Assembly (NCBI GenBank): GCA_903870175.1
Contig: CAIQBY010000166.1
Span: 1,395 to 65,394 of the forward strand
Length of the DNA: 64,000 bases
Source: an uncultured Bacteroidota bacterium
GTDB lineage: Bacteria; Bacteroidota; Bacteroidia; 2-12-FULL-35-15
Direction: 5' to 3'
The notes under the pieces were generated by a model that was not told the DNA's origin, searched no databases, and was given only the letters and a program-made list of their open reading frames with translations. The translations under genes and the position numbers were made by a program. This document shows positions 3,868 to 62,310 of this stretch, piece by piece (the stretch's first letter is position 1; each line of letters begins with the position of its first letter).

Positions 3868-3880
3868 TGTTTAGTTTTGT
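3868..3880 (+). promoter_or_regulatory. Candidate Bacteroidota -7 promoter box (TAnnTTTG) upstream of T9SS gene, inside duplicated module A
   Basis: ttTAGTTTTGtaaaacc lies ~25 bp upstream of the TTG start. The identical box recurs at 4851..4863 upstream of the second gene. Confidence 0.35.
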
Positions 3881-3898
3881 AAAACCAAATCCGCACAA

Positions 3899-4843
3899 TT
3901 GAAAAAGTACCTGTTTTTATTTATTGGAATACTGTTTTTTGTGAATGTAAAGGCGCAAGTACCAAATTTTTTTGTTGATGGCTCTGTTTGGTCATATTAT
4001 ACACAGGAAAGCTATGAACCTAATATGTGTACAACTCAAAACACATTGGAGAATGATTCAATACAAGGAGATACGGTAATAAATAGTATTAGTTATAAAA
4101 AATTATTTGCCTTGAGTCAGGTATCTATTCAAACTTATTATCCTTGTTATAATGGCACTACTTATCCAGTTGGTACAACTCTAAAATTTATTCGATATGA
4201 TACAGTAACGAGAAAACTATTTATGAAAAATGATACCGGCACTTATGTACCTGAAATACTGTTATACAATTTTAATCTCATCGCAGGAGATACGATTCCA
4301 CTTATTCCTGGCTACAATAGTGGTTTTAGTGGATGTAGAATTATTGATTCCGTAAAAAGTATTATATTTTTTGGAATCCCTGTTCGCAAATTTTATATGC
4401 CTTATATGCCGAGTAATCATCAGGGAAATTATATTATTGAAGGAATGGGAGGCTCAAATGGGTTAACTTTTTTTCAGCCTCAAATGATTTTATCGTCAGG
4501 CGGATATTATTTAACATCACTTAATTGTTTTAAATCTGGAAATAATGTTTACCCAAATGGGGCTTCTTGTCCTTCATTTATTCCAGTAGGCATCCAAGAA
4601 CTCCAAAACAAAACAACATTAGAACTTTCGCCAAACCCAAATAACGGCAGCTTCACAATTACAAGCAATAATCCACAACTAAAAACCATACATATATATA
4701 ATGTACTTGGCGAAGAAGTTTTTCATTCCGAAATCAACAATACTAAATCCGAAATCATAACAAACAATTTGCCAACGGGAATATATTTTGTAAAAGTTTC
4801 TTCGGAAAAAGAAGTGCTTACAAAAATGATGGTGAAGGAATAA
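3899..4843 (+). CDS. Secreted protein with T9SS (Por) C-terminal sorting domain
   Basis: 314 aa with a TTG start. Signal peptide MKKYLFLFIGILFFVNVKA. The last ~75 aa (LSPNPNNGSFTI...GIYFVKVSSEKEVLTKMMVKE) are a typical T9SS type-A CTD. Confidence 0.75.
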   Translation: MKKYLFLFIGILFFVNVKAQVPNFFVDGSVWSYYTQESYEPNMCTTQNTLENDSIQGDTVINSISYKKLFALSQVSIQTYYPCYNGTTYPVGTTLKFIRYDTVTRKLFMKNDTGTYVPEILLYNFNLIAGDTIPLIPGYNSGFSGCRIIDSVKSIIFFGIPVRKFYMPYMPSNHQGNYIIEGMGGSNGLTFFQPQMILSSGGYYLTSLNCFKSGNNVYPNGASCPSFIPVGIQELQNKTTLELSPNPNNGSFTITSNNPQLKTIHIYNVLGEEVFHSEINNTKSEIITNNLPTGIYFVKVSSEKEVLTKMMVKE

Positions 4844-33350: not shown

Positions 33351-33789
33351 ATTTTTACCCTTTTCAAGTTCTTATTTCCTGTTTTAGAGAACTAAAAATG
33401 CACTTCAAAGAACTGTTTTTTTGCTTTTTAATGTTGAGGAAAGCTTCCTTTAAAAATCTTTTAATCTTTAATAAGACAGATTTAAGGAAGAAGGGGCACA
33501 GAATCTTACTGATGAGTTACCCGCTAACTTTGGATGCATCTCGAAACTATTTGTTTCTACCGGTAAAATTATGTTTTAAACGAATACCAAATGAATAAAT
33601 CTTTTTGAAATACCAGTATTTTCAGATATTTGGGCTGGAGAGGAGTGCTATGATAGATTATAAAAGTTATCAACCGTCTTAAATTATTTTCTTAAAAGAC
33701 GTTTTGAAGAGATAATTGCGTAGTATTTAGAAATTATACGCATTATATTATATACATTTGTATTATCAAATAAATTAATCCTCCTTAAA

Positions 33790-35880
33790 ATGAAAAGAAT
33801 TACTCTCTCCTTATCAGTTATTGTAGCACTTACAATTCTTTCGTTTACAAGCCGAGCACAAACAAATGTGAGTGGCGGAATACACGTAAATACTACTTGG
33901 ACTTTAGCAAATAGTCCGTATATAGTAGTAGATACTGTGGTTGTATTTCCGGGGATAACGCTTACTATACAACCGGGTGTTGTTGTGAAATTTAATAATA
34001 CAATGCAACTTGAAATAAGGCAGGCAACGCTAATAACAAATGGAACAAGTGCAAATCCAATTACTTTTACAAGTAATTCAAGTTCGCCGACACCAGGTAT
34101 TTGGGAAAGTATTTATTTAAACCAATGTGTTTCTGCGGGTTTTAATTACTGTAATTTTAGTTATTCAAAATATGGAATTGCTAATTCAAGTACTCTTCAA
34201 ATATCAATTAAAAACTCAAATTTTACATTTAATACAAATGGAATTTATCAATGTTTTATCAATATGGATTCATGTGTTTTCAAACATAATACAAATGGTA
34301 TTAATACTGCCATGGGTCCTGGGAAAATACTTAATTCCATTTTTACAAATAATCAGAGTGGATTATTAAATAATGACGGCTCCAAAACAATAAATTGTAT
34401 TTTCAATTCCAATCAAACTGGAATAACCATAAGCGGATATAGGGTTTTAATAAAAAATTGTGTAGTTGATTCTAATACCACATTAGGAGTTAGTTTACCC
34501 CCAAGTGGAAATTATGATACCATATTTAATAATCAGATAAAATATAACGGCATTGGTTTGGAAAGTGCCGCTGCTTCAAGTGGTGCAATAATAACTAAAA
34601 ATGTTTTTGATAATAACAATATAGGCATTAAAGAAAGCAATAATGTCGATTCTATATATTGTAATAGAATTTGTAACAGTACTTCCTACGCTTTTTATTA
34701 TAATGCAAATTCTAATTATAATGCATATTTAGGAAATAATTATTTTTGTACCCCCGATTCTATTTCAACAGCAGCTGTAGTTTATGATGGATATGACAAT
34801 ATAAATTATGGCTTAGTAAATTTTATGCCGCTTGATACAACCAATTGTTATCAAACTGGTTGCAATCTTCATGTCTCAGCAAATATTACCAGTGCAACTT
34901 GCAGGACTTGCCCAAATGGTTCAGCAATTGCTCATGTTCTATACGGTTTTCCTCCATATACATACACTTGGTATTCTACACCAATTCAAAACACACAAAC
35001 AGCTATAGGTTTGGCTTCCGGCAATTATGGAATATGTGTTACAGACGCAAACGGATGTTCCGCCTGCGACACTATTTTTGTAGACTCTACAAATTGTACT
35101 GGGTTTTCCATTGTTCCAAACTCAACTAATGCTTCGTGTACTACCTGTGCTGATGGTACAGCTAAAGTTATTCCAACAGGCGGCACAGCACCATATCATT
35201 ATACTTGGTACACTAGCCCTATGCAAACAACAGACTCTATTTCAGGATTAATTCATGGTACTTATCATGTTTGTGTTACTGATGCGAATGGTTGTATATC
35301 CTGCGATTCAACTACTGTGAATGTTGGAAGTTGTTCGGCACATTATAATCTGTATTCTACTGCCACTCCGCATTATTATACAGCTGTGAATATGGCTTCG
35401 GGCGCAGCGCCTTTAACCTATTACTGGAGTTGGGGAGATGGCACACACGATACAGCAGCATATCCAAGTCATACCTATGCTGCAACAGGTTTTTACAATA
35501 TCTGCCTCACTATTACCGATAATGCTGGATGTACCAATACCTATTGTTCTTCATATTATTTACTCCGTCCGCAAAGTCAAATGGTTTATGTAAATGTAAT
35601 TTCAAATACAACAGTTGGTATAAATCAATTGATAGCAGATAATTCTATTTCAATTTATCCCAATCCATTCACCTCCCAAACAACAATTTCTTTTTCTACC
35701 GAACAAACAAATACTTCAATAAAAATAACAGATGTGGTAGGCAAAGAAATAAAAACAATAAACTTTACCGGCACACAATATATTTTGGAAAAAGGAATAA
35801 TGAAGCCAGGTATTTATTTCGTGCAGATAACGGATGCCAATAAAAATGTGGTGAACAGAAAAATAATTATTAATGATTAG
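33790..35880 (+). CDS. Secreted parallel beta-helix / Cys-rich repeat protein with T9SS C-terminal sorting domain
   Basis: 696 aa. Signal peptide. Beta-helix-like N-rich repeats, then three ~80-aa Cys-rich modules (C.TC..G.A...GG.PYTYTWY...GL..G.Y.VCVTDANGC), a PKD-like segment, and a T9SS CTD (SIYPNPF...GIYFVQITD). Confidence 0.8.
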   Translation: MKRITLSLSVIVALTILSFTSRAQTNVSGGIHVNTTWTLANSPYIVVDTVVVFPGITLTIQPGVVVKFNNTMQLEIRQATLITNGTSANPITFTSNSSSPTPGIWESIYLNQCVSAGFNYCNFSYSKYGIANSSTLQISIKNSNFTFNTNGIYQCFINMDSCVFKHNTNGINTAMGPGKILNSIFTNNQSGLLNNDGSKTINCIFNSNQTGITISGYRVLIKNCVVDSNTTLGVSLPPSGNYDTIFNNQIKYNGIGLESAAASSGAIITKNVFDNNNIGIKESNNVDSIYCNRICNSTSYAFYYNANSNYNAYLGNNYFCTPDSISTAAVVYDGYDNINYGLVNFMPLDTTNCYQTGCNLHVSANITSATCRTCPNGSAIAHVLYGFPPYTYTWYSTPIQNTQTAIGLASGNYGICVTDANGCSACDTIFVDSTNCTGFSIVPNSTNASCTTCADGTAKVIPTGGTAPYHYTWYTSPMQTTDSISGLIHGTYHVCVTDANGCISCDSTTVNVGSCSAHYNLYSTATPHYYTAVNMASGAAPLTYYWSWGDGTHDTAAYPSHTYAATGFYNICLTITDNAGCTNTYCSSYYLLRPQSQMVYVNVISNTTVGINQLIADNSISIYPNPFTSQTTISFSTEQTNTSIKITDVVGKEIKTINFTGTQYILEKGIMKPGIYFVQITDANKNVVNRKIIIND

Positions 35881-45039: not shown

Positions 45040-45116
45040 TGTCATAAATTTTATGACTTATAAATCTTAAATGTTTTTTTGTGCGGGCAACATCCTTCCA
45101 TGTTGCAATATTCTAA

Positions 45117-45220
45117 CCCGCTTTCCCCTCCAATCTTATTTGCCTTGAAAAAAGGCAAATAAGGATTTCCGGTATAATCGGGCGCAGTTGCAAGTGCATC
45201 GTTCTCCTAAAGTTTTCCAT
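45117..45220. ncRNA. Conserved ~105-nt intergenic element, copy 1 (strand unresolved). Contains hairpin TTATTTGCCTT/AAGGCAAATAA
   Basis: Near-identical to 62207..62310 outside the hairpin. The hairpin stems differ but both pair perfectly (compensatory). Confidence 0.45.
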
Positions 45221-48654: not shown

Positions 48655-48788
48655 TCTTTTTAATCGACTTAATTGCTTTCAAATGCAACCTTTTATAATG
48701 TTTATGAGTCTTTAAGTTATAAAATCATTAATTTATTTTTATTCGAACTCAATTTTTTTTATATTTGTACTTTAATTAATAAAACACC

Positions 48789-51206
48789 ATGAAAAAATTA
48801 TTTACTCTTAGCCTTTTTGTCCTATGTGCTTTTATAACTGCATTTAGCACAAACTACAATTCAACAGGAAGCACTGCCTGGAATCTTACTTCTACCTGGA
48901 TTTCTGTACCAGGAGGTGTGCATGCGGTTCCTGGCTCTGGGGATAATGTTACAATCCTGAATACTCATAATGTGGAAGTGTCTCGTTTTGGGTCGTGTGC
49001 CAATCTTACCATTAATTCAGGTGGAACATTAACCTATTTGGCAAATGTTGCAATTACTGTAAATGGCAGTTATACTTTATTGGGGACTGAGTCAGGCACA
49101 GGACAGTTAAAGTTTTCCGGTTCAGGTTCTACCCTAACGGTAACAGGTACTGTAGGTGCAAATGTTATTTATAATTTCAATGCGACCTGTTCAATTGCTG
49201 GTTCTTCTGTGATTTCTAAAACTACAAATACAGTTATAAATTCAGGTTGCACAGTTACAAACAATGGAACTTATACAATGGGTTCTTTCACAACTGCTGC
49301 AAGTTCTCAATGGACAAATGTGGGTACTTTAACTTTGACAATTAATGGCTTTATGCCAAACGGTTCAGGCACTTTCGATGCTTCATCGGCATCAAATACG
49401 GTAGTGATTAATTATGCAACGGGTGATATTCCTAAAACGTCAGCCGGTTATTACCATTTAACAGTTTCCGGTACAGGAACAAAAAACTTATTGCAAAATT
49501 TGATAACAGCAAAAAATCTTACAATCAGTTCAGGCGCCACTTTAAATTCAAATAATTTCAATTTAACCATTGGAGGCAATTGGAGTAAACCAGGTACTTT
49601 TACAGCAAGTGCTGGCCACACAGTAACTTTTAATGGCACTGCTGGACAAACCATTTCAGGTTCTGGAACAACAACTTTTGAACAACTAACCGTGAGTAAC
49701 ACGACGGCTAATCCTTTATTGGCCATAGTTTCTATTACCTCAGGATCGTATATTCTTAATGATGTACTTACAATGAATCATGGAATATTTAACACCAATG
49801 GAAATAATTTTACAATGATTTCGGATGCGACAAAAACTGCTAGAATTGCACAAGTTGCAAGTGGATGTAATATATTGGGCAATTTTATTATTGACAGATA
49901 CATTTCTACTAGAGACACAACATGGGCAGACTTATCATCACCTGTTCAAGGTTCTACTTTTAATGACTGGGCCAGCGAATTGCAGGCAATAAGCTATAAT
50001 TATGTTGCAGGTTCCTCATGGCCAACACAGGAGACTTGGAGCGAATCGGCTAATGATTTTGTCCCTCTTACTTCTTCAAGTACAACTTTAACACCTGGGA
50101 AAGGGTTTGAAGTATATTTGTCCGGTGATTTTGCCATGGCGAATTTACCAAATACCACACTTACTACAGTTGGAGTACCAAACTATGGAGACCAGAGTTT
50201 AACAAGTTTGATTTCTTATACTCATGCCTATCCTGCGGGAAGTTCGAATTTAGTTGGTAATCCATTTGCTTCCAGCATTTCCTGGAGTGCTGTTTTAGCT
50301 GCTTCAACTCATCTAGACCCTACCATTGATATGTTTGATTACACGGCGGGTGCTTATACAAATTATAGTGCAGGAACGGTTATAGGTTCTACTCAAGGAT
50401 TTTGGGTATATACCCTTACAAACACTGCCACCTTCAACATACCGGAAAGTGCAAAAACTACTGCGACCAGTAGCAGTTTAAGAACCAGTATTCCTGAAGA
50501 TTTTTTCACTTTGAAACTCTCCAGTGCAGATAATAAAACTCCATATTATCAAATATTAAAAGTTGGTGCTTCTCAAGATGCAACAGACGGATTTGATATC
50601 GGAAAAGACCATTGGTTCAGAAAAAGCCCAATGAAGACAACTCCTGTTTTGTTTTCAACAATAGACAGATATCAATCAAGTATTAATGTTTTTAATTCCA
50701 ATGACGAAAATTATGATATGCCTATTTCCACTTCAGTTGGAATTTCAGGTTATTATAAATTGGATGCAAACAACTTTGGTATTCTAAGTGAGTATAGCTG
50801 CATTACTCTTGAAGATAAATTATTGAATAAAACAATTGACTTGAAAGCTCAACCTTCATATTCATTCAGATTAAACACAACAGATAATGAAAATCGTTTT
50901 ATCATTCATTTCAGCAAGTCAGGAAACTGTAATGTTTCTTCAGGATTAAAAAACCTTTCAACATTTGAAAATCATACTGAAATATTACCAACGCTTTATG
51001 GAAATATAATCAACTTTAATTTAAATGAAACAACTAATTCAAAAGTTAGTGTAGTAAATTTATTAGGTCAAACTATTGTTGAACCAACAAACGTTGAGGC
51101 ATTAAATCAATCTATCAATATCCACTTACCTGAAGGATTCAGTGGAATGTATTTAGTAAAAATTGAATCTGAGAAGGAAACTACTATAAAGAAATTTATA
51201 AAATAA
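48789..51206 (+). CDS. Large secreted repeat protein with T9SS C-terminal sorting domain
   Basis: 805 aa. Signal peptide. Thr/Ser/Gly/Asn-rich beta-strand repeats. C-terminal CTD (NVLGQTIVEP...GMYLVKIESEKETTIKKFIK). Confidence 0.75.
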   Translation: MKKLFTLSLFVLCAFITAFSTNYNSTGSTAWNLTSTWISVPGGVHAVPGSGDNVTILNTHNVEVSRFGSCANLTINSGGTLTYLANVAITVNGSYTLLGTESGTGQLKFSGSGSTLTVTGTVGANVIYNFNATCSIAGSSVISKTTNTVINSGCTVTNNGTYTMGSFTTAASSQWTNVGTLTLTINGFMPNGSGTFDASSASNTVVINYATGDIPKTSAGYYHLTVSGTGTKNLLQNLITAKNLTISSGATLNSNNFNLTIGGNWSKPGTFTASAGHTVTFNGTAGQTISGSGTTTFEQLTVSNTTANPLLAIVSITSGSYILNDVLTMNHGIFNTNGNNFTMISDATKTARIAQVASGCNILGNFIIDRYISTRDTTWADLSSPVQGSTFNDWASELQAISYNYVAGSSWPTQETWSESANDFVPLTSSSTTLTPGKGFEVYLSGDFAMANLPNTTLTTVGVPNYGDQSLTSLISYTHAYPAGSSNLVGNPFASSISWSAVLAASTHLDPTIDMFDYTAGAYTNYSAGTVIGSTQGFWVYTLTNTATFNIPESAKTTATSSSLRTSIPEDFFTLKLSSADNKTPYYQILKVGASQDATDGFDIGKDHWFRKSPMKTTPVLFSTIDRYQSSINVFNSNDENYDMPISTSVGISGYYKLDANNFGILSEYSCITLEDKLLNKTIDLKAQPSYSFRLNTTDNENRFIIHFSKSGNCNVSSGLKNLSTFENHTEILPTLYGNIINFNLNETTNSKVSVVNLLGQTIVEPTNVEALNQSINIHLPEGFSGMYLVKIESEKETTIKKFIK

Positions 51207-51229: not shown

Positions 51230-51463
51230 ATGAGAAAGAAAATTTTTAAAGTATCGATAGTATTATTTTTAATAGGTTCACCATTATTTATTTCCAATGC
51301 ATTTGCAGGCATGGGCGGCGGTGGCGGTCACGGCAAACCCTGCGGCGGTCCATTTCCTCCTTGCCCGGTTCCAATTGATGGCGGAATAAGTTTGCTGCTG
51401 ATTGCAGGTGCTGCTTACGGAGGCAAAAAAATATATGACCTTTCAAAAAAGAATCCCGCATAG
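51230..51463 (+). CDS. Tiny secreted Gly/Pro/Cys-rich peptide with PEP-CTERM-like tripartite C-terminal sorting signal (PVPIDGG-TM-KK)
   Basis: 77 aa. Signal peptide (MRKKIFKVSIVLFLIGSPLFISNAFA) and a ~20-aa mature region (GMGGGGGHGKPCGGPFPPC). Then PVPIDGG, a hydrophobic helix (ISLLLIAGAAYGG), and KK. Sits immediately upstream of the exosortase-like gene. Confidence 0.5.
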   Translation: MRKKIFKVSIVLFLIGSPLFISNAFAGMGGGGGHGKPCGGPFPPCPVPIDGGISLLLIAGAAYGGKKIYDLSKKNPA

Positions 51464-51482
51464 GGATTCTTTTATTTTATAG

Positions 51483-52004
51483 TTGATTATGAACTTTTCT
51501 TTCTTTAAAAATCCTACTGTAAAATTTCTCTTCTTCATTTTTCTCTTTTACATTTCCTGGTACTGCATTTACAATTTATGGTTGCACCCAAATGAAATTT
51601 TAGATACGTTTGTTATTAATAAATCAAGAGATACAAGTAAATGGATTTTGGAACACTTGGGCTATGTTGTGTTTACAGGTGAAGAGGGTGTTGTCGGGAT
51701 TGATGGCAGCGGCGGAATTTGGATCGGCGACGGATGTAATGGAATTGCGCTGTTTGCTTTGTTTACAGGTTTTATAGTTGCTTACAGAGGAAACTGGAAA
51801 TTAAAAATAGTTTATATCATTTTAGGAATTGCCTGCATTCAATTCTTAAATGTCATTCGTTTTGTTGCTCTGGCAATATTAGATGTTCACAGCAGAGCTT
51901 GGACTGAATTTAATCATACATACACCTTTACCATAATTATCTATGCGTTTATTTTTATGCTTTGGATTTTATGGGTGAATAAATTTTCGAAGAAAAAAGT
52001 CTAA
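51483..52004 (+). CDS. Exosortase-family intramembrane transpeptidase (XrtF-like)
   Basis: 173 aa polytopic membrane protein. Candidate catalytic Cys (IGDGCNG) and the N..R motif in a TM helix (FLNVIRFVAL), as in exosortase/archaeosortase families. Small size matches the XrtF subgroup. Confidence 0.6.
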   Translation: MIMNFSFFKNPTVKFLFFIFLFYISWYCIYNLWLHPNEILDTFVINKSRDTSKWILEHLGYVVFTGEEGVVGIDGSGGIWIGDGCNGIALFALFTGFIVAYRGNWKLKIVYIILGIACIQFLNVIRFVALAILDVHSRAWTEFNHTYTFTIIIYAFIFMLWILWVNKFSKKKV

Positions 52005-53165: not shown

Positions 53166-55208
53166 TTATTTGATTTTGATGAACCTGTTTGTCGAAATTG
53201 TTGTTTCATCTTTTATGGTGATGAAATATATCCCTTCGGAAAGGTTTGATATATCAATACTTTCAACAGCATTTATTCTGTTTTCTGAAATTAAACTGCC
53301 ATAAATATCAGTAATCGAATATGTGATTTTTGCTGATTGATAAGAAGAATTTATTTTAATAAATAATTTATCGTTGGCCGGATTTGGATAAACGGAAATA
53401 TTTTTATCCGCAACTGGAATATTTTTAATCCCTGTAAATTCAGCAGCAGTACCAAACACAGCACGCATCATCATTGAACCTGGATATGGTGATGTATACC
53501 AGGTACCTGTTGTATTGTAAAATACTTTATTCATATTATTTGTCCTTTTATCCACTCCAACATTTAAAAACTGATTGGTGTTTTGTAAAAAACCAACGTA
53601 AAAAGTAGATGCATGAAGATAAAGCGGAAGATAAATCGGATTTGTTAAATAATATCGAATAAAATGGTCAGGACCATAATTGATTGTATCATATTCCGGC
53701 GTAAGTTGAAGATTAATATTATCAGAATAAATTTCGGCACCCGGCTGACCTCCAACATCATTCCAAACTTTCATTACGATGGTATATAAAGTTGCATCAT
53801 TCCAAAGAGGATTAAAATAAATATCTATACAGCGCAAAGTATCAGGTATTGTAGAAGTAAATTGTTGGGCTAGTTCGCCAAGCACCATTGAGGTTCCACC
53901 AAGTGCAAAGGCACTTTCCGCCGAGCCGTCGTCGTAGGCATAATAATTTAGAAACTTTTGTTTTGTTCTTACAGTATCATTTAGATGGTTTTTATCAGGA
54001 TTGGTGTTAAGCACTGCTTCAAAATTATATGTAATAGAATCATTTAATACAGGTATTACTGGCAGCGGACTTGCATTGTAAGTATAATATCCGGAAGAAG
54101 TATAAGGGTTAACATTATCAGAAGAATTTGGGGAACAAAATACTTGTATATGAATACTATCAACACAAAAATCAAAATTCACGTTTTTGGGAATGTTATA
54201 ATTATTTCGTAACAAAACATGAATGGAGTCTTGCATAAAAGATGTTTTATAATGCTTCCAAGGCATGGCTGTATATGTTTTCAATAATGAGGGAGGGTCA
54301 TAAACAAAAGCAACATCTTCAAATAAAGTATCATACATATTCCTATTTTTAGCCAGATAAACATTATCAATACTCCACTGGTCACCATTGCCGCTGAGCG
54401 TAGCCCAATTTCTAAATCGAAATTGAAAACCTGCTTTCAGAAACGTAGTATCAGTTACAGGAAGTATAACATATTTCCAACTGCTGTCATTTGCAGGAAG
54501 CGGATATCCGAAATGCGCCCAGCGTTCCTGCCATATCACCGAATCGTAAGGTTTAACGTAATCGACTATCTGGCCAATTGCATCAGATATTGAAACTATA
54601 GTATCTGTAAATGTAACTGAATCGTAAGAAAATAATGTGTCTTTTACAAATGTAGTATCATGAATAGTTTTATAAGCAGTTGTTTTTTTGCCAAACTCAA
54701 GTATTAACGAATCCGCTGATTCAGGCGCATTCCCACGGCCCTGCGGCTGATAATAAAAACTTAAATATATTGAATCTCCTGCAACTTTGTTTTTCAAATT
54801 TATTCTTTTCGAAGTGAGTACATCAGCCTTACCTGTAGAATATTGACTTGCTAAAAAGTCGTAAGGATAACCGTGCTCATTTACTCCATCAAAAGTTGCA
54901 ACACCAATGGTAGGCGGTGCAATAGGGTAATCTCGATTTATAAAAACATAATTATCCAGCCATAATGCAGTATCAGGAAATGGACCTCTCTTTGAAAAAT
55001 CATCTAAAAAGGGAGAAGAATCAATGTTCAGAGTGTCATAAACTGAAGGAGCAACATAAACCGATTTTTGATTTTTGATTTCATTCCATTTTTGTAACAA
55101 CACATGATTTGTACTCAATGGCACTTCAATCAGTCCCTGAGAGCACAGAATGTTGGATAGCAACATACAAATTGAAGCTAAAAATATATTATTGATCGTA
55201 ATTTTCAT
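53166..55208 (-). CDS. Secreted hypothetical protein with T9SS C-terminal sorting domain
   Basis: ORF 53166..55238. The likely start is the internal Met with a signal peptide (MKITINNIFLASICMLLSNILCSQG). C-terminal CTD (ISVYPNPANDKLFIKI...GIYFITIKDE). Confidence 0.7.
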   Translation of the reverse strand: MKITINNIFLASICMLLSNILCSQGLIEVPLSTNHVLLQKWNEIKNQKSVYVAPSVYDTLNIDSSPFLDDFSKRGPFPDTALWLDNYVFINRDYPIAPPTIGVATFDGVNEHGYPYDFLASQYSTGKADVLTSKRINLKNKVAGDSIYLSFYYQPQGRGNAPESADSLILEFGKKTTAYKTIHDTTFVKDTLFSYDSVTFTDTIVSISDAIGQIVDYVKPYDSVIWQERWAHFGYPLPANDSSWKYVILPVTDTTFLKAGFQFRFRNWATLSGNGDQWSIDNVYLAKNRNMYDTLFEDVAFVYDPPSLLKTYTAMPWKHYKTSFMQDSIHVLLRNNYNIPKNVNFDFCVDSIHIQVFCSPNSSDNVNPYTSSGYYTYNASPLPVIPVLNDSITYNFEAVLNTNPDKNHLNDTVRTKQKFLNYYAYDDGSAESAFALGGTSMVLGELAQQFTSTIPDTLRCIDIYFNPLWNDATLYTIVMKVWNDVGGQPGAEIYSDNINLQLTPEYDTINYGPDHFIRYYLTNPIYLPLYLHASTFYVGFLQNTNQFLNVGVDKRTNNMNKVFYNTTGTWYTSPYPGSMMMRAVFGTAAEFTGIKNIPVADKNISVYPNPANDKLFIKINSSYQSAKITYSITDIYGSLISENRINAVESIDISNLSEGIYFITIKDETTISTNRFIKIK

Positions 55209-56013
55209 CATCTTTTGTATTTGTTGATGTTGTATCAACGCTAATTACAGGTATTTTATTGTGGTCGGTCGTGAAAAATAAATCGACAGTAGAACCCATT
55301 TTTAAACTTTTATCTCTTCCGCACTTTGGTAATTGTCTGTAAACCTTTGACGTTGCAGAGTCTTTAGGTTCGTCAAACGATATTGCTCCTGCACTTAAAG
55401 AAGCATCCGTTAATTTTTCCAACGCTTCTTTTTTTGACAATCCATATAAACAAGGTACGCCCACCTCTTCATCACTCAATCCTTTTCCCACAACCAAATT
55501 AATAACAGTTCCTTTAGCAATGCTTTCTCCCTGTGTAATTTTTTTCCCTTTTACAAGTTGATCCAGCACACAATTAGCGCATTGATCGGGGACAAATTTT
55601 ACTTTTCCAAGTTTCAAACCATAAGTTGTCAGCATTGCCTGAGCTTGTCTTAACGAACGGTCGATTAATTTTGGCATCACCACAGAAGGCGGCATTAATG
55701 AGTTAACATATAAATAAATTGTCCGTCCGTCTTTCACTTCTGCCTTTGGTTCCGGCTCTTGTTTTATTACTGTCCCCTTTGGTGATTTAGTATCGTAAAT
55801 TGAATCAACCACTAAATATTTTACACTTTTATCAGAAATGAAATTATCCAAATCACCTAATTTAACACCGGTAAAATCAGGTACTTTAATAGTTTTTCCA
55901 TGACTTGTGTATGAACTTAGCCAGAAAGTAATTATCAGGCAAACCATTGCAATAAACACCAAATATAAAATAAGATGTTTTAAAAATGCTTTGCTTTTAA
56001 TAAAATTAAACAT
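55189..56013 (-). CDS. PASTA-domain membrane protein
   Basis: 274 aa. N-terminal TM followed by three PASTA-like repeats. PASTA–rluD linkage is conserved in Bacteroidota. Confidence 0.7.
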   Translation of the reverse strand: MFNFIKSKAFLKHLILYLVFIAMVCLIITFWLSSYTSHGKTIKVPDFTGVKLGDLDNFISDKSVKYLVVDSIYDTKSPKGTVIKQEPEPKAEVKDGRTIYLYVNSLMPPSVVMPKLIDRSLRQAQAMLTTYGLKLGKVKFVPDQCANCVLDQLVKGKKITQGESIAKGTVINLVVGKGLSDEEVGVPCLYGLSKKEALEKLTDASLSAGAISFDEPKDSATSKVYRQLPKCGRDKSLKMGSTVDLFFTTDHNKIPVISVDTTSTNTKDDENYDQ

Positions 56014-62079: not shown

Positions 62080-62206
62080 TGTAATGGATTTTAAGTGAAT
62101 TATTAAATTGTTTTTATAGTGAGATGCATCCCCCTTTAAAATTCCATAAACAATTTTGAAATATTTTTTTTGGCGACCAAAGTTCCTGCCATCCATCAAG
62201 TTCGTT

Positions 62207-62310
62207 CCCGCTTTCCCCTCCAATCTTTTTATTTTTGAAGAAAAAATAAAAAGGATTTCCGGTACAATCGGGCGCAGTTGCAGCAGTATCGTCCTCCTCC
62301 AGTTTTCCAT
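62207..62310. ncRNA. Conserved ~105-nt intergenic element, copy 2. Contains hairpin CTTTTTATTTTT/AAAAATAAAAAG. Lies in 5' leader of A2M gene on minus strand
   Basis: See copy 1 at 45117..45220. Flanks are conserved (CCCGCTTTCCCCTCCAATCT ... GGATTTCCGGTAyAATCGGGCGCAGTTGCA ... ATCGTyCTCCT..AGTTTTCCAT). Confidence 0.45.

Follow-up and report, generated by a model that had tools for sequence, protein, structure and literature searches.

A PID-CTERM mini-protein and its exosortase X close a three-gene module led by a type IX secretion cargo gene in an uncultured Bacteroidota bacterium

In a 64,000-nucleotide stretch of DNA from an uncultured Bacteroidota bacterium (contig CAIQBY010000166.1; the whole stretch analyzed is hereafter called the window), a gene for a mini-protein of 77 amino acids (aa) lies directly upstream of a gene for a small membrane enzyme of the exosortase type. 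We find that this pair is an ordinary member of the PID-CTERM/exosortase X system of Bacteroidota, which is catalogued as NF046080, NF046081 and PF28310, and that it forms the last part of a conserved module of three genes, starting with a gene for a cargo protein of the secretion system known as type IX (T9SS). An earlier note on this DNA had taken the two genes for a "minimal" system whose motif it did not know to be characterized; the catalogued families overtake the second part of that description and the cargo gene the first. We think it probable that the cargo gene, the peptide gene, a leaky hairpin and the exosortase gene xrtX are read, in that order, as one transcription unit of this system, for which a mechanism is proposed below.

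Results

The mini-protein and its sorting signal

The mini-protein is encoded by an open reading frame (ORF) at 51230-51463 on the forward strand, and its product, MRKKIFKVSIVLFLIGSPLFISNAFAGMGGGGGHGKPCGGPFPPCPVPIDGGISLLLIAGAAYGGKKIYDLSKKNPA, is identical to the one described earlier. The predicted layout consists of a signal peptide (residues 1-26), a Gly/Met/Pro/Cys core of ~20 residues (27-46), a sorting signal (47-70) and the tail LSKKNPA. Read from the sequence, the N-terminus has the n-region MRKK, a hydrophobic core and a signal-peptidase-type site, AFA/G, that is aligned in the homologues. The sorting signal comprises VPIDGG, a transmembrane (TM) helix and KKIYD, with 10 residues following the KK, such that the C-terminus reads VPIDGG-ISLLLIAGAAYGG-KK in a tripartite layout. 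Specifically, the NCBIfam model of the PID-CTERM protein-sorting domain, NF046080, matches the mini-protein at 44.5 bits (E = 9.2e-12; curated cut-off 26 bits), and its positions 1-24 of 25 align with residues 47-70. This match bears out the PEP-CTERM-type tripartite signal that had been claimed for the ORF. A classical PEP-CTERM target was rejected, the motif being PID and not PEP. The local copy of Pfam returned no match for the mini-protein; a newer Pfam family, PF28310 (PID_CTERM), covers its family according to precomputed labels. Six-frame regular-expression and profile searches found no further PID-type tail and no second exosortase within the window.

The mini-protein has 72 homologues of 50-83 aa, mostly flagged PF28310, with the alignment consensus GMGxGPPxPCGGPFPPCPVPLDGG...GGKKIYDxxKKNP. 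Against four relatives, the nonsynonymous substitution rate (dN) of the gene is 0.13-0.18 and the synonymous rate (dS) is 0.86 to 2.8 or saturated; because dN is well below dS, the ORF is under purifying selection. It is also called as a 77-aa gene on public contigs that encode an identical upstream protein. The conservation expected for a real gene is seen in these 72 homologues and in a mini ORF at 40 of the 41 loci discussed below.

To view the family more widely, a profile of the tail only was searched against 1.84 billion representative proteins at a threshold of E <= 0.001. It matched 1,534 clusters, so that the motif does occur in other putative substrates. Every one of the best 150 of these 1,534 is 40-117 aa long (median 75) and has a signal peptide, a short core, P[ILV]DGG, a TM helix and KK, with the tail at the extreme C-terminus; a tiny substrate, which had seemed unusual, is the norm of the family. 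The core in these best 150 of 1,534 has 8-30 residues and is rich in Pro, Gly and Asp. Family cores fall into several classes, namely PCGGPFPPC (the clade of the window), C[WF]PPPC, acidic GDDPD, poly-Pro and a GGAPIGSG variant, and many mini-proteins, with acidic or poly-Pro cores, have no Cys. The Gly/Cys core that had drawn notice earlier is thus particular to the clade of the window's peptide. As a separate observation, a large variant with the layout GGAPIGSG-helix-LGAAYGGKKVYD, present in many of the metagenome loci L065-L127, scores 22-28 bits on NF046080 and is probably annotated inconsistently, because its scores straddle the cut-off of 26. This variant, too, sits after T9SS cargo genes.

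The exosortase

The enzyme, exosortase X (XrtX), is encoded at 51483-52004 on the forward strand by an ORF that begins 19 nucleotides (nt) past the peptide stop and gives 173 aa when read from TTG at 51483. The true start is likely the ATG at 51489, which gives 171 aa, because homologues begin MN.SF and public gene calls also give 171 aa. Among the exosortase models of NCBIfam, the best is NF046081, exosortase X, at 175.5 bits (E = 8.3e-52; curated cut-off 170 bits). The runners-up are XrtF (TIGR04128) at 79.4 bits, below its curated cut-off of 90, and XrtY at 65.1, with XrtH and the archaeosortases lower. The assignment to XrtF in the earlier note is consequently not upheld; XrtF is a sister family. 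What does hold is that the downstream gene encodes an exosortase retaining its Cys and Arg. The exosortase/archaeosortase signature TIGR04178 matches at 50.9 bits (cut-off 23), the motifs GDGCNG (Cys85) and NVIR (Asn123 and Arg126) are present, and Cys85, Asn86, Asn123, Arg126, Arg138 and His145 do not vary across an alignment of 29 homologous sequences. The match to PF09721 (Exosortase_EpsH) is marginal (26.2 bits; cut-off 25.7) and covers only the last 150 model positions, and full-length, XrtA-type membership in that family was rejected on this account. The structure model (predicted local distance difference test score, pLDDT, 82.7) is polytopic and helical. A search of the PDB with an XrtX profile retrieved no solved exosortase; its sole match, to a calcium-channel subunit, is due to chance. 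The gene 3' of xrtX encodes a pseudouridine synthase on the opposite strand.

A genome scan with one genome per species yielded 41 XrtX loci, all from metagenome-assembled genomes (MAGs) of uncultured Bacteroidota; throughout, the comparison genomes are MAGs or metagenome contigs. A PID-CTERM gene of 68-82 aa stands directly 5' of XrtX in 40 of the 41, in agreement with the dedicated peptide-exosortase pair noted earlier. The exception, L039, has a true XrtX (177 bits) and the XrtX-associated membrane protein, NF046082, without an adjacent peptide gene. NF046082 lies within 6 kb of XrtX in 13/41 other loci. It is absent from the loci of the closest relatives and lies directly 3' of XrtX in more distant ones (those listed are L005, L034, L023, L025, L039, L027, L037 and L038). 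A Wzc-like tyrosine autokinase/chain-length protein is encoded upstream in 25 of the 41 loci (for example L005, 580-2676, reverse strand) and a Wzm-like ABC-2 permease in 15 (for example L014, 1-578, reverse strand); neither is present in the window.

Two further loci bear on the border between the enzyme families. L058 (754-1311) and L061 (777-1319) carry exosortases ~4 kb upstream of cargo and PID-CTERM cassettes, and these enzymes score 155 bits on XrtX, below its cut-off of 170, and 92-105 on XrtF, above its cut-off of 90. Annotation pipelines would label them XrtF. Because these two pass the XrtF cut-off only, the XrtX/XrtF boundary does not divide cassette-bearing from cassette-less enzymes, and they are relevant to the question of XrtF substrates.

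The T9SS cargo gene upstream

The first gene of the module, at 48789-51206 on the forward strand, encodes a secreted protein of 805 aa with a T9SS type A C-terminal domain (CTD), and its stop codon lies 23 nt 5' of the peptide start. The CTD is recognized by TIGR04183 (43.4 bits; cut-off 23) and by Pfam PF18962 (33.6 bits; cut-off 27), and Foldseek finds it similar to T9SS CTDs solved in SprA translocon complexes (8gl8_D, 8glk_D and 8gl6_D; probability 1.00). In the structure model (pLDDT 88.9), a beta-helix (22-335) is followed by a beta-sandwich module (~360-710), a low-confidence linker (716-724) and the CTD (730-804). Whole-protein fold searches gave no informative match for the conserved middle module (~360-710), dominated as they were by the variable beta-helix and the CTD.

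An orthologue of this cargo gene stands directly 5' of the peptide gene in 37 of the 41 XrtX genome loci, and the other neighboring genes of the window (helicase, peroxidase, pseudouridine synthase) persist in just 4-6 close relatives. The linkage was tested on 80 metagenome loci (L048-L127) that were fetched by the peptide tail alone, with upstream ORFs taken stop-to-stop. A same-strand ORF ends <=400 nt 5' of the peptide in 62 of the 80, and a profile of the window's cargo family matches 55 of these 62, spanning the CTD and ~400-500 residues before it. The Pfam family Por_Secre_tail is matched by 36 of 46 distinct C-termini of the upstream ORFs, and three of the misses are junk ORFs; other ORFs of the same loci match the CTD profile, which was partly trained on the positives it scores, in 20 of 235 cases. 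Members of the cargo family share a C-terminal module of 400-500 aa and an RFxLHF motif before the CTD, and their N-terminal regions vary (LamG-like, FN3, propeller-like). The mini-protein genes mostly lie 2-60 nt 3' of the cargo gene. One locus, L045, has the order XrtX, associated protein, 1,185-aa T9SS cargo, peptide. The statement that the cargo family always carries a mini gene was rejected, since two lineages with ~874-aa homologues and one 1,347-aa homologue are without one.

The peptide and its cargo also appear to be matched in their cysteines. In the window, the cargo linker contains SKSGNC (residues 714-719; 50928-50945) and the peptide contains CGGPFPPC (51341-51364). Where the peptide has a Cys pair, the partner cargo has a lone Cys 6-7 residues past RFxLHF, in the low-confidence linker before the CTD, in 20 of 23 cases; with Cys-free peptides, a Cys occurs in the cargo linker in 1 of 41 pairs. 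The pattern extends to at least two classes of peptide (C-x6-C and C-x4-C) and may point to a contact between cargo and peptide, by a disulfide or otherwise.

A conserved hairpin between peptide gene and xrtX

Terminator scanning and folding identified a hairpin with a U-rich tract, resembling an intrinsic terminator, at 51447-51482 on the forward strand. Its 11-bp stem (51447-51473) encloses the stop codon of the peptide gene and lies between this gene and xrtX. The hairpin folds with a free energy of -15.3 kcal/mol (z = -5.8), a stability that no sequence among 200 shuffles equals. An equivalent hairpin is found in 39 of 40 other peptide-bearing loci, as compared by folding each sequence and extracting the arms, and in L013, L004, L032, L037, L027 and L038 (in the last farther downstream) the stems are altered yet complementary. 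RNAalifold, given the MAFFT-aligned hairpin sequences, returned no structure; the variable loops misaligned the 3' arms. The 5' arm of the hairpin is made up of the codons for KKNPA, and the strong conservation of the peptide's last residues may in part be due to this overlap. From its RNA structure, we infer that the hairpin acts as an attenuating, leaky terminator, which would leave peptide and cargo abundant and the enzyme scarce.

A putative -7 promoter box, TATATTTG, was found by pattern matching at 48760-48767 (forward strand), 22 nt before the cargo start in a 134-nt intergenic region. It fits TAnnTTTG, the -7 promoter consensus of Bacteroidetes. Within 3.6 kb this 8-mer pattern turns up six times, and the match is accordingly weak evidence. 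A sigma-70 promoter scan was discarded as unsuited to Bacteroidota, with 10 sites found and 15.4 in shuffled sequences.

Other features of the window

Three more ORFs of the window have T9SS CTDs: 53166-55238 (reverse strand), 3875-4843 (forward strand) and 33724-35880 (forward strand). The one among them that encodes 690 aa, two genes 3' of xrtX, is conserved only in the four closest relatives and is not followed by a mini gene. The window also has two matches to the Flavo-1 RNA motif (RF01705; gathering score 42), at 45110-45189 (58.5 bits) and 62200-62279 (67.7 bits), both on the reverse strand.

Discussion

Proposed mechanism

We propose that the mini-protein is exported by Sec and that its signal peptide is removed after Ala26. 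Judging from the sequence, the remainder would be held in the inner membrane, with the ~20-residue core in the periplasm, the C-terminal helix spanning the membrane and the Lys-rich tail inside. By analogy with better-studied sorting enzymes, XrtX, as a polytopic Cys/Arg membrane enzyme, would then recognize P-[ILV]-D-G-G together with the helix and cleave at or near the motif through a thioester on Cys85, and the ~20-residue peptide would be passed to a lipid or a sugar. The hairpin would permit an excess of cargo and peptide over the enzyme, of which read-through should yield little. Finally, the processed peptide may act with the T9SS cargo encoded just upstream. This last step is suggested by gene linkage, because the peptide gene nearly always follows a member of the cargo family.

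Several points weigh against this proposal. The literature search yielded no experiments on any XrtX or PID-CTERM protein. The core sequence is variable across the PID-CTERM family, and a role that needs an exact core sequence can therefore not be general. Neither tblastn nor an 11-member profile detected the third protein of the system, NF046082, anywhere in the 64-kb window; its gene may lie in another part of the genome. The linkage to the cargo family is one-way, as the distant ~874-aa cargo homologues of two lineages have no mini gene after them and the 1,347-aa homologue likewise has no room for one, and some PID-CTERM genes stand alone. Moreover, an XrtX-type gene lies within 5 kb of the peptide in only 11 of the 80 metagenome loci, which suggests that the cassettes of some genomes are multiple and scattered, with a single enzyme at another site. 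Shared ancestry is ignored in the counts of linkage and Cys, and, because the CTD profile was partly trained on scored positives, the Pfam count is the cleaner figure for the upstream ORFs.

Alternative readings

It is also possible, and we offer this tentatively, that PID-CTERM mini-proteins are dedicated partner peptides of one T9SS cargo family and not free-standing substrates. An exosortase of the XrtX/XrtF type would either turn the peptide into a stub linked to a lipid or glycan or keep it as a membrane tether, and the cargo would then be fixed to the peptide. In clades that have the cysteines, this could occur through a disulfide joining the Cys of the cargo's pre-CTD linker to the Cys pair of the peptide; alternatively, the peptide could be the amine acceptor for the T9SS sortase PorU. 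The idea draws on the cargo-then-peptide order, seen in 37 of 41 loci from genomes and 55 of 62 from metagenomes, on the Cys co-occurrence (20 of 23 versus 1 of 41), and on the presence of exosortases that pass the XrtF cut-off near cassettes, together with the fact that xrtF mutants phenocopy T9SS mutants. Speaking against it, many peptide cores probably start with Gln, which is open to blocking by cyclization, some mini genes stand alone, and the evidence is all gene order.

The tail itself can be read in another way, in which the mini-protein stays uncleaved and serves as a single-pass subunit or regulator that binds XrtX or tethers the T9SS cargo at the inner membrane, with the PIDGG-helix-KK part as a docking surface. 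Such a role would make sense of a family in which only the tail is conserved throughout and the "cargo" part consists of 8-30 low-complexity residues, and in which the tail on the cytoplasmic side, GGKKIYDxxKKNP, exceeds a plain basic cluster in both length and conservation; the 1:1 gene pairing with the cargo family fits a partner as well as a substrate. We nevertheless regard it as unlikely. A sorting-domain model that follows the PEP-CTERM paradigm recognizes the tail, a signal peptide with a C-terminal anchor is the standard layout of a substrate, and the catalytic Cys and Arg of XrtX are invariant, which a scaffold would not need. In addition, the conservation of KKNPA may be partly due to the terminator stem on those codons. 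If it is the core that matters instead, the product might be a stand-alone bioactive peptide (signaling, bacteriocin-like, or a periplasmic metal binder with the Met/His/Cys-rich sequence GMGGGGGHGKPCGGPFPPC), with XrtX as its maturation protease. The clade does keep a Met-Gly repeat and a C-x6-C pair, and a terminator after a small precursor gene resembles the operons of precursor peptides. However, cores are not conserved across the family, where acidic, poly-Pro and Cys-free ones are common; the neighborhood has no conserved genes for modification, export or immunity, and the conserved neighbor is the T9SS cargo. We consider this improbable, and given the lack of core conservation, metal-binding readings and those resembling ribosomally synthesized and post-translationally modified peptides were rejected as accounts of the family in general.

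Still less probable, in our judgment, is that the pair forms an XrtF (exosortase F) system using a substrate motif not described before. XrtF ranks second among the models with 79.4 bits, the two models are of similar length (174 positions for XrtF and 168 for XrtX), and pipelines of the Joint Genome Institute (JGI) label homologues XrtF; yet this score lies below the cut-off of 90, whereas XrtX reaches 175.5 against 170. The XrtF-associated membrane protein, TIGR04127, was not found in the window, and the motif is already catalogued as PID-CTERM. We hold it to be scarcely credible that only the exosortase is real and the 77-aa ORF arose by chance or was called in error: ORFs of small size often prove spurious, and this one overlaps a 57-aa antisense ORF, but the match at E = 9.2e-12, the 72 homologues, the presence in 40 of 41 loci, a dN far below dS and the calls on public contigs all contradict it.

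Status and significance

The family to which the pair belongs is already named in databases. At NCBI, homologues carry the names "exosortase X" and "PID-CTERM protein-sorting domain-containing protein". In the annotation pipelines of JGI, many homologues of the enzyme are called "exosortase family protein XrtF", and sequences 97-100% identical are already in public assemblies. A full-text literature search retrieved no paper that uses the names PID-CTERM, XrtX or exosortase X, and none on the system. Among papers that treat both type IX secretion and exosortases, none appears, in the portions available to us, to describe the cargo-peptide-exosortase pairing, and we found no prior description of the coupling to a T9SS cargo family or of the conserved terminator.

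By itself, the finding adds one more member to a system that is known as database models only. If the link to the cargo holds, two envelope-sorting pathways that are now treated separately become connected. Should the partner-peptide reading be true, the exosortase route and type IX secretion would be coupled in mechanism, and XrtF-type exosortases would gain a concrete substrate candidate. The gene order, the terminator and the matched cysteines make the function of the small Bacteroidota exosortases experimentally addressable in any carrier that can be cultivated.

Comparison with known systems

The closest known system is PID-CTERM/exosortase X itself, with which the window pair shares scores above the cut-offs, architecture, adjacency and phylum (Bacteroidota); the window differs in having no NF046082, the third curated family of that system. 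The sister family is represented by XrtF of Flavobacterium johnsoniae (Fjoh_1448, with the associated Fjoh_1449; TIGR04128 and TIGR04127), and both comprise Bacteroidota enzymes of ~170 aa. The XrtX and XrtF families each have a small associated membrane protein, and NF046082 weakly matches TIGR04127. The window enzyme fails the XrtF cut-off, and XrtX has an adjacent candidate target whereas XrtF is without a known one, its targets being reported as not yet known (PMC12188702). Deletions of F. johnsoniae xrtF and of its partner gene cause the same colonization, biofilm and zorb defects as deletions of porU, porV and porZ (PMC10936215).

On the side of type IX secretion, the nearest comparison is the attachment of cargo by PorU of Porphyromonas gingivalis and Tannerella forsythia, which removes the CTD and attaches the new C-terminus to a linking sugar through an amide bond with the amino group of the Ser or Gly that this sugar carries (PMC7468200). 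The window's partner protein is likewise a T9SS type A cargo. The cited work on PorU attachment describes no mini-protein or exosortase, and the link drawn here comes from gene order alone. Veith et al. observed that VimA, an enzyme of the T9SS linking sugar, resembles a PEP-CTERM-associated FemAB-like family, and speculated on a shared chemistry (PMC7468200).

On the side of exosortases, the PEP-CTERM/exosortase A (EpsH) system of Proteobacteria and others has the same signal peptide, Pro motif, TM helix and basic cluster in the substrate and a polytopic Cys/Arg enzyme. A further likeness is that exopolysaccharide genes lie near XrtX in many loci, although none adjoins it in the window. The XrtX system differs in its motif (PID-GG and not PEP), in the size of the enzyme (~170 aa versus ~250-500), in targeting mini-proteins and not full-size proteins, and in its dedicated pairing. 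By analogy, the only experimentally supported models for the putative chemistry of XrtX are ArtA/PGF-CTERM of Haloferax volcanii (PMC9263693) and rhombosortase/GlyGly-CTERM of Vibrio cholerae (PMC7468200), in which cleavage at the motif is followed by attachment of the new C-terminus to a lipid. Both differ from XrtX in motifs, organisms and substrates (an S-layer glycoprotein and a secreted protease), and rhombosortase is not homologous to exosortases. In ArtA, Cys173, Arg214 and Arg253 are critical for activity (PMC9263693), and the spacing of 41 residues between Cys85 and Arg126 of XrtX is that between Cys173 and Arg214 of ArtA.

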